Assembly (NCBI GenBank): GCA_030614005.1
Contig: JAUWKS010000100.1
Span: 1-8,353, forward strand
DNA: 8,353 bases
From: Candidatus Heimdallarchaeota archaeon
GTDB lineage: Archaea > Asgardarchaeota > Heimdallarchaeia > JABLTI01
Direction of reading: 5' to 3'
Shown here: piece by piece, positions 5,104 to 5,254 of the stretch
Layout of the letters: every line of letters begins with the position of its first letter
How positions within the stretch are numbered: position 1 is the first letter of the stretch
Notes under the pieces: model-generated
The model's input: only the letters and a program-made list of their open reading frames with translations
What the model was told of the DNA's origin: nothing
Databases searched by the model: none
Position numbers and translations under genes: made by a program

Positions 5104-5254
5104 TGGCGATTAAAAAGCTAATGTATCCACAACAAATCTAAAGGTCTAGTAGTTGGTTTGGTTGGGGGTGCACTAGAAAAAGACGATAAGAAAATAGTCT
5201 TGTTTCCAAACCCGAGGGAACAAGATGACATTCGGAATTGTCGATTAATCGCCA
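5104..5254 (+). ncRNA. candidate novel structured non-coding RNA (~150 nt), family unassigned
   Basis: Perfect 10-bp terminal helix TGGCGATTAA(5104-5113)/TTAATCGCCA(5245-5254). Internal 10-bp hairpin 5198-5207/5216-5225, a 15-bp imperfect stem 5123-5138/5155-5171 and GACA/TGTC (5227-5242). GC is 60/151 (~40%) versus ~27% in 4929-5103. G.U wobbles work only on the + strand. There is an upstream TATA box and a downstream TTTT (5256-5259). Confidence 0.6.

Follow-up and report, generated by a model that had tools for sequence, protein, structure and literature searches.

Genomic setting and gene model

What occupies the long gap between two convergent genes in the genome of Candidatus Heimdallarchaeota archaeon (GCA_030614005.1, contig JAUWKS010000100.1), and is it an RNA that switches between two structures? 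The window analyzed here is the whole stretch of 8,353 nt, and the segment flagged in it by a first-pass annotation made from the sequence alone (5123-5225) sits in a 352-nt gap, 4929-5280, in a genome with a G+C content of 33.5%. The flagged segment lies within a predicted RNA gene of approximately 150 nt on the + strand, with predicted ends at 5103/5105 and about 5259; transcription probably starts at 5103-5105. The gap, its flanking genes and the elements that surround the RNA are laid out as follows:

3912-4928, + strand: HEAT-repeat open reading frame, left flank of the gap
4996-5012, + strand: TTAACA-N6-TGTTA palindrome, distal copy, preceding the RNA promoter
5050-5066, + strand: proximal palindrome copy, some 10 bp before the TATA box
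5077-5083, + strand: archaeal TATA box, about 22-28 nt before the first base of P1
5256-5259, + strand: T-run of four (T5-T6 in most relatives), likely an archaeal oligo-T terminator
5281-6183, - strand: Pterin_bind (folP-like) open reading frame, convergent, right flank of the gap

A single three-way-junction fold

The + strand of 5100-5262 has a minimum free energy (MFE) of -51.9 kcal/mol (z = -4.9), which none of 200 shuffles equalled; the - strand of the same stretch gives z = -1.95. The conserved U-G wobbles in P2 and P3 also assign the structure to the + strand. Its overall shape is a three-way junction, or Y, composed of a closing helix (P1) and two long hairpins (P2 and P3) joined by three junction strands:

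5105-5113, + strand: 5' strand of the closing helix P1, pairing with 5245-5253
5114-5117, + strand: J1/2, purine-rich junction strand, unpaired and conserved in all paralogue types
5118-5176, + strand: P2 hairpin, with a 16-nt apical loop at 5139-5154
5177-5181, + strand: J2/3, junction strand of five A residues, near-invariant among paralogue types
5182-5242, + strand: P3 hairpin, with two internal loops
5182-5187/5237-5242, + strand: lower stem of P3
5190-5192/5231-5233, + strand: 3-bp helix of P3
5193-5196/5227-5230, + strand: invariant 4x4 internal loop of P3
5197-5207/5216-5226, + strand: upper stem of P3
5208-5215, + strand: apical loop of P3
5243-5244, + strand: J3/1, 2 nt, the shortest junction strand of the consensus structure
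5245-5253, + strand: 3' strand of P1, partner of 5105-5113

P2 consists of the pairing 5123-5138/5155-5171, which the first-pass annotation had called State A, and a basal extension (5118-5122/5172-5176); the partition function gives the P2 pairs probabilities of 0.96-1.00. State A was described accurately, with 15 bp, a mismatch (A5129/G5165) and a bulge (G5160) in the MFE pair list. P2 and P3 each contain about 19-20 bp, and the two arms are closely alike in length in all paralogues. The short J3/1 fits a stacking of P1 on P3 that would place P2 beside P3.

Comparative evidence for this fold is extensive. For 14 distinct orthologues, the RNAalifold consensus contains 44 pairs, and 15 of these have undergone compensatory change. 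With paralogues included, an alignment of 23 sequences that had been fitted to the model structure has 93.3% of its cells paired, and compensatory changes occur in 31 of the 44 pairs, distributed as 4 of 9 in P1 (where 99% of cells are paired), 15 of 17 in P2 and 12 of 18 in P3. None of 500 shuffles reached these values, and slid controls stayed at or below 49%. Every paralogue, folded singly, also gives the same three-way-junction shape. The RNA is a single stable three-way-junction fold, not a switch.

The alternative pairings are chance complementarities

The first-pass annotation had proposed that the RNA alternates between State A and a State B (5145-5150/5172-5177), in which a G-rich segment would be displayed in a loop and its 5155-5161 would form a 7-bp loop-loop pairing with 5206-5212, while a 5-bp pairing (5180-5184/5197-5201) would compete with P3. 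All four complementarities are present in the sequence where they were placed, and the 6-mer, 7-mer and 5-mer are perfect. Such complements are readily found in sequence of this composition: when 5123-5225 was dinucleotide-shuffled 2000 times, perfect complement pairs numbered on average 1.4 for 6-mers and 0.33 for 7-mers, and the 5 six-mers and 2 seven-mers observed, which include the real P3 helix, were reached by 3.8% and 7.7% of shuffles, respectively.

None of the three alternatives behaves as a conserved helix, and in orthologues none is paired more often than in shuffles. State B is paired in 71% of cells among the 14 orthologues, a value matched by 430 of 500 shuffles, and in 58% among 28 family members. 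The 7-bp pairing is kept in 50.5% of cells in orthologues, with no compensatory change, and in 57% in the 28 family members; its last two pairs hold in the three closest genomes only, and it is already broken in a genome whose copy is 96% identical (G001). The residues assigned to it sit within strongly covarying helices. The 5-bp competitor reaches 74% in orthologues with only 3 conserved pairs, no better than shuffles, and 54% in the wider family. In the partition function, every alternative has a probability of about 0.000 beside the near-certain pairs of State A, and forcing State B or the 5-bp competitor costs +11.9 and +6.1 kcal/mol, respectively. State B and the 7-bp and 5-bp pairings are chance complementarities.

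Homologues thus keep one helix set, the very pattern that the annotation had named as speaking against its own proposal. Two hallmarks of a riboswitch are lacking here, namely mutually exclusive conserved helices, as only State A (P2) covaries, and states of comparable stability, given the cost of State B. There is also no expression platform: no gene follows on the same strand, the next gene is the convergent folP-like one and the RNA ends in a T-run. No known aptamer and no RNA family linked to folate or pterins gave an Rfam match, THF-I and THF-II (folE) included, either at the gathering score or at E<=10. A ligand- or protein-responsive RNA that passes between State A and State B, with the G-rich segment of State B forming a pseudoknot with the P3 loop, is therefore extremely improbable in our judgement, even though each alternative helix is a perfect complement in this sequence and the 7-bp pairing could also form, with one wobble, in the closest relative (G010). 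Where the annotation had offered a two-state RNA or a compact tertiary fold, it is the compact tertiary fold that survives.

Family, paralogues and shared upstream elements

The element was detected by BLAST in 10/10 genomes of the genus at 72-96% identity, and pattern scans revealed further copies in metagenomes. A first covariance model (R1) was run on 82 genomes of the class and a second (R2) on 151 genomes across the phylum. Matches to R1 were confined to the window's own family, where all 11 other genomes carry the RNA, and exposed a second, much more diverged paralogue (type 2, with the window's RNA and its orthologues as type 1); R2 added a third (type 3) in the clade of this genome. 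Most family genomes, some of them incomplete assemblies, contain 2-3 copies. The two further copies in this genome have quite different P2 sequences and the same three-way junction:

G000:C83:17827-17999, - strand: type-2 paralogue, R2 score 128 bits
G000:C68:45546-45715, - strand: type-3 paralogue, R2 score 116 bits

Outside the family, no credible homologue was found in the 82 class and 151 phylum genomes, where the top scores were 20-21 bits under strict filters that may miss weak relatives. As found in these searches, the RNA would be limited to one family of Heimdallarchaeia.

The paralogues resemble each other in their upstream regions as well as in their fold. In upstream alignments, the proximal palindrome is kept in all type-1 orthologues, and a TGTTA half-site precedes most copies of types 2 and 3, with the exception of the type-2 copies from the clade of this genome. 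Types 1 and 3 and most of type 2 have an A/T-rich box at the same distance from P1. The promoter elements common to these copies are the TGTTA palindrome or half-site, the TATA box and a CC-N-AATA element. In the clade of this genome, the type-2 copies differ in the proximal upstream region, which contains a TATA-like stretch only. A genome-wide regular-expression search found TTAACA-N6-TGTTA at 5 unique sites in 3.6 Mb. RNA genes of type 1 or type 2 follow 3 of these 5, and one of the three (G000:C83:18094-18110) precedes the type-2 copy of this genome by about 95 nt; the type-3 copy retains the TGTTA half-site. At the other end of the gene, a T-run follows P1 by 2-3 nt in most of 28 copies, the T-tract being interrupted in a few of type 2. 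The shared palindrome or half-site and core promoter suggest that the paralogues are co-regulated by one factor, and the palindrome is a candidate operator of a dedicated regulator.

A probable loop-loop contact between the two arms

The first-pass annotation had also suggested a kissing-loop architecture, and this part of its reading was borne out in kind. A kissing contact is indicated, but one that would join the actual apical loops of the P2 and P3 arms, through residues other than those that the annotation had named and not as part of a switch. In nearly all family members the P2 and P3 apical loops are mutually complementary. Type-1 orthologues place a P2-loop GGG(U) opposite a P3-loop (A)CCC, with two columns paired in 14/14, and the pairing differs by lineage (GGGUA/UACCC, AGGGUU/AACCCU). 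The other paralogues have GGAUUGA/UCAAUCC or GAGAGA/UCUCUC in the same places. The contact would comprise 5-8 bp in most members and 3 bp in this copy, where its halves are:

5143-5145, + strand: P2-loop half, GGU, aligning with the GGG(U) of relatives
5210-5212, + strand: P3-loop half, ACC, of the ACCC conserved in type-1 loops

The first G of the loop GGG(U) has mutated to A in the clade of this window, and at -2.6 kcal/mol the contact of this copy is the weakest in the family (shuffle p = 0.68). The loop-loop contact may thus be weak or lost in this particular RNA.

Types 2 and 3 pair one register off type 1 in the covariance-model alignment and, for this reason, complementarity across paralogues was assessed by alignment-free permutation instead of a column-wise count. 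For 26 distinct loop pairs, the own-partner duplex had an energy of -8.7 kcal/mol, compared with -7.0 +/- 0.4 kcal/mol after permutation (0 of 5000 permutations as low). With loop boundaries drawn strictly, 15 lineage representatives gave -6.9 and -5.3 +/- 0.4 kcal/mol (p = 0.0004), and the shuffle p combined by Fisher's method over the same 15 was 5e-7; these permutation and Fisher p-values are inflated, as the sequences are related and their independence is overstated. By these comparisons, complementarity of the apical loops has been maintained through sequence change in the family, and the tips of P2 and P3 probably touch. Arms of similar length and a short J3/1 are the geometry expected for an intramolecular contact in known three-way-junction families. 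The same two properties in this RNA point to a tuning-fork arrangement, in which the contact would be made within one molecule.

Comparison with known RNAs

Rfam searches returned nothing consistent, either for the window (gathering score and E<=10) or for seven paralogue loci (E<=5), and BLAST against plasmid and phage sequences gave no match. Several established identities were considered individually. The model for 5S rRNA (RF00001) finds no 5S gene in the genus or family, this genome included, and 5S rRNA is reported to have escaped prediction in closed Heimdall genomes (PMC8813620), which is why a 5S reading of the locus was entertained. It was rejected because the true 5S rRNA lies elsewhere in the genome as a circularly permuted gene (G000:C124:850-1000, - strand; L055/L094); the RNA itself gave no RF00001 match at E<=10. 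The order in the permuted gene is the canonical 3' half, a 4-nt loop that caps helix I and then the canonical 5' half, while the new ends form a covarying terminal helix, with a TATA-like box upstream and a T-run downstream. The gene occurs once in each of the 12/12 family genomes, with 87-98% identity, and accounts for the failure of RF00001 and published pipelines to detect 5S rRNA here.

Archaeal SRP RNA and RNase P RNA were likewise set aside, both being present elsewhere in the genome above the gathering score. The P3 internal loops of both paralogue types showed, on inspection, no conserved kink-turn register (tandem sheared G-A/A-G pairs after a 3-nt bulge) and no C/D or ACA boxes, and k-turn, C/D, H/ACA and BHB were rejected as readings of the internal loops and of P1, for which inspection gave no conserved register.

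With P1 and two covarying hairpins the RNA would belong to the tuning-fork class, which is an architectural class and not a homology family. One close parallel is the purine riboswitch (RF00167; also TPP and hammerhead-type junctions), with which it shares P1 and two hairpins that would lie side by side with their apical loops paired, a shortest junction strand between P3 and P1 and invariant junction nucleotides. However, its arms, at 19-20 bp and with conserved internal loops, are roughly three times as long, its junctions are nearly pure A, it has its own promoter and terminator, and it has neither an expression platform nor a downstream gene nor a covariance-model match. The phi29 pRNA also combines a three-way junction, a size of about 120-170 nt and two loops with a lineage-covarying complementarity of at least 4 nt, but its loops pair between molecules and it is phage-encoded beside packaging genes, whereas the Heimdall RNA occupies stable chromosomal loci. 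The three-way-junction topology and order of size are also those of 5S rRNA, yet 2-3 strongly diverged paralogues are not the pattern expected of an rRNA. Diverged paralogues, most of them with the same upstream palindrome, are reminiscent of RsmX/Y/Z and Qrr1-5; this likeness is one of analogy, as the present RNA is archaeal, has no sequence or structure homology to them and contains no free seed region.

Proposed function and competing explanations

We consider it likely that the flagged segment forms the central part of a stand-alone structured RNA of about 150 nt which acts in trans and belongs to an uncatalogued family with 2-3 paralogues; its single three-way fold would have the P2 and P3 arms clamped by their apical loops. 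In mechanistic terms, apical-loop pairing would hold P2 and P3 side by side as a tuning fork, and a protein partner might bind this rigid fold at its purine-rich junction strands and P3 internal loops, both of them invariant; the RNA may act as a regulated ribonucleoprotein (RNP) or regulatory RNA controlled via the shared upstream palindrome. That the presentation of the A-rich junction and P3 internal loops to a protein by a rigid tuning fork is indeed the function is a possibility, less likely than not, that we put forward tentatively. It is decidedly more speculative, and unlikely, that the RNA is a subunit of a previously unknown RNP specific to Heimdallarchaeia, with the kissing-loop tuning fork as its protein-recognition scaffold. 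By analogy, the gene layout, with an upstream palindromic element, a TATA box, a short and structured RNA closed by a terminal stem and an oligo-T stop, would parallel that of eukaryotic Pol III genes for small RNAs such as Y or vault RNAs.

A multi-copy regulatory sRNA, whose co-regulated paralogues titrate an RNA-binding protein or pair with mRNAs, would account for the 2-3 paralogues per genome, the palindrome or half-site and core promoter shared by most copies and the G-rich motifs of the apical loops. It largely overlaps with the functional part of our best explanation, although nearly the whole RNA is taken up by covarying helices and its variable parts are compensated stems and not free seeds, which leaves it somewhat unlikely as a separate account. 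Pairing of the loops between molecules, generating dimers or rings of splayed Y-shaped units as in phi29 pRNA, is improbable for a different reason: the complementarity and covariation data are equally compatible with intra- and intermolecular pairing, and the similar loop sequences of types 2 and 3 make hetero-pairs conceivable, but the closely similar arm lengths in all paralogues and the shortness of J3/1 argue for the clamped, intramolecular tuning fork.

The position of the RNA beside a folP-like gene raises a further explanation, that of an orphan ligand-binding aptamer which acts in trans or on the convergent folP transcript and whose junction forms the pocket of a purine-type tuning fork. 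The architecture and the invariant junction strands would suit such a role, and in both genera the type-1 RNA and the Pterin_bind (folP-like) gene are arranged tail-to-tail. However, the type-2 copies examined are mostly tail-to-tail with a glycosyltransferase or PolX gene, one having no convergent neighbour, and folP loci in five Heimdall genomes of other families contain no homologous RNA even with covariance-model filters off; the folP or folate link is for these reasons one of synteny only and not of mechanism. The RNA also has its own promoter and terminator, the folP-like gene stops at its own T-run before reaching it, and, as noted above, THF and folE-type families gave no match. Junction strands that consist almost wholly of A are moreover atypical for ligand pockets. 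We regard an aptamer as very improbable.

The refutation of the switch means that there is no folate-riboswitch story to be built on chance complementarities. What replaces it is a well-supported structured RNA family for which catalogues list no relatives, with a covarying tertiary contact and probably co-regulated paralogues. To our knowledge, almost nothing is known about the non-coding RNAs of the Heimdall group, the archaea closest to eukaryotes. The family offers a compact and testable model of a long-armed kissing-loop three-way junction, and the RNA together with its upstream palindrome provides a handle for finding both the protein partner and the regulator.

Additional observations at orthologous loci

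Two orthologue contigs have unexpected titles, DATKZI010000037.1 being named "Candidatus Bathyarchaeia archaeon" and JABLTI010000017.1 "Promethearchaeati archaeon," while the others are labelled Heimdallarchaeota; these two taxonomic labels of metagenome-assembled genomes are probably loose or mistaken. In two genomes, tRNA genes were detected no more than a few hundred bases from the type-1 RNA (L068:1132-1234 in G011 and L066:2183-2256 in G007), and the match in G011 covers 103 nt, so that this tRNA gene may contain an intron.
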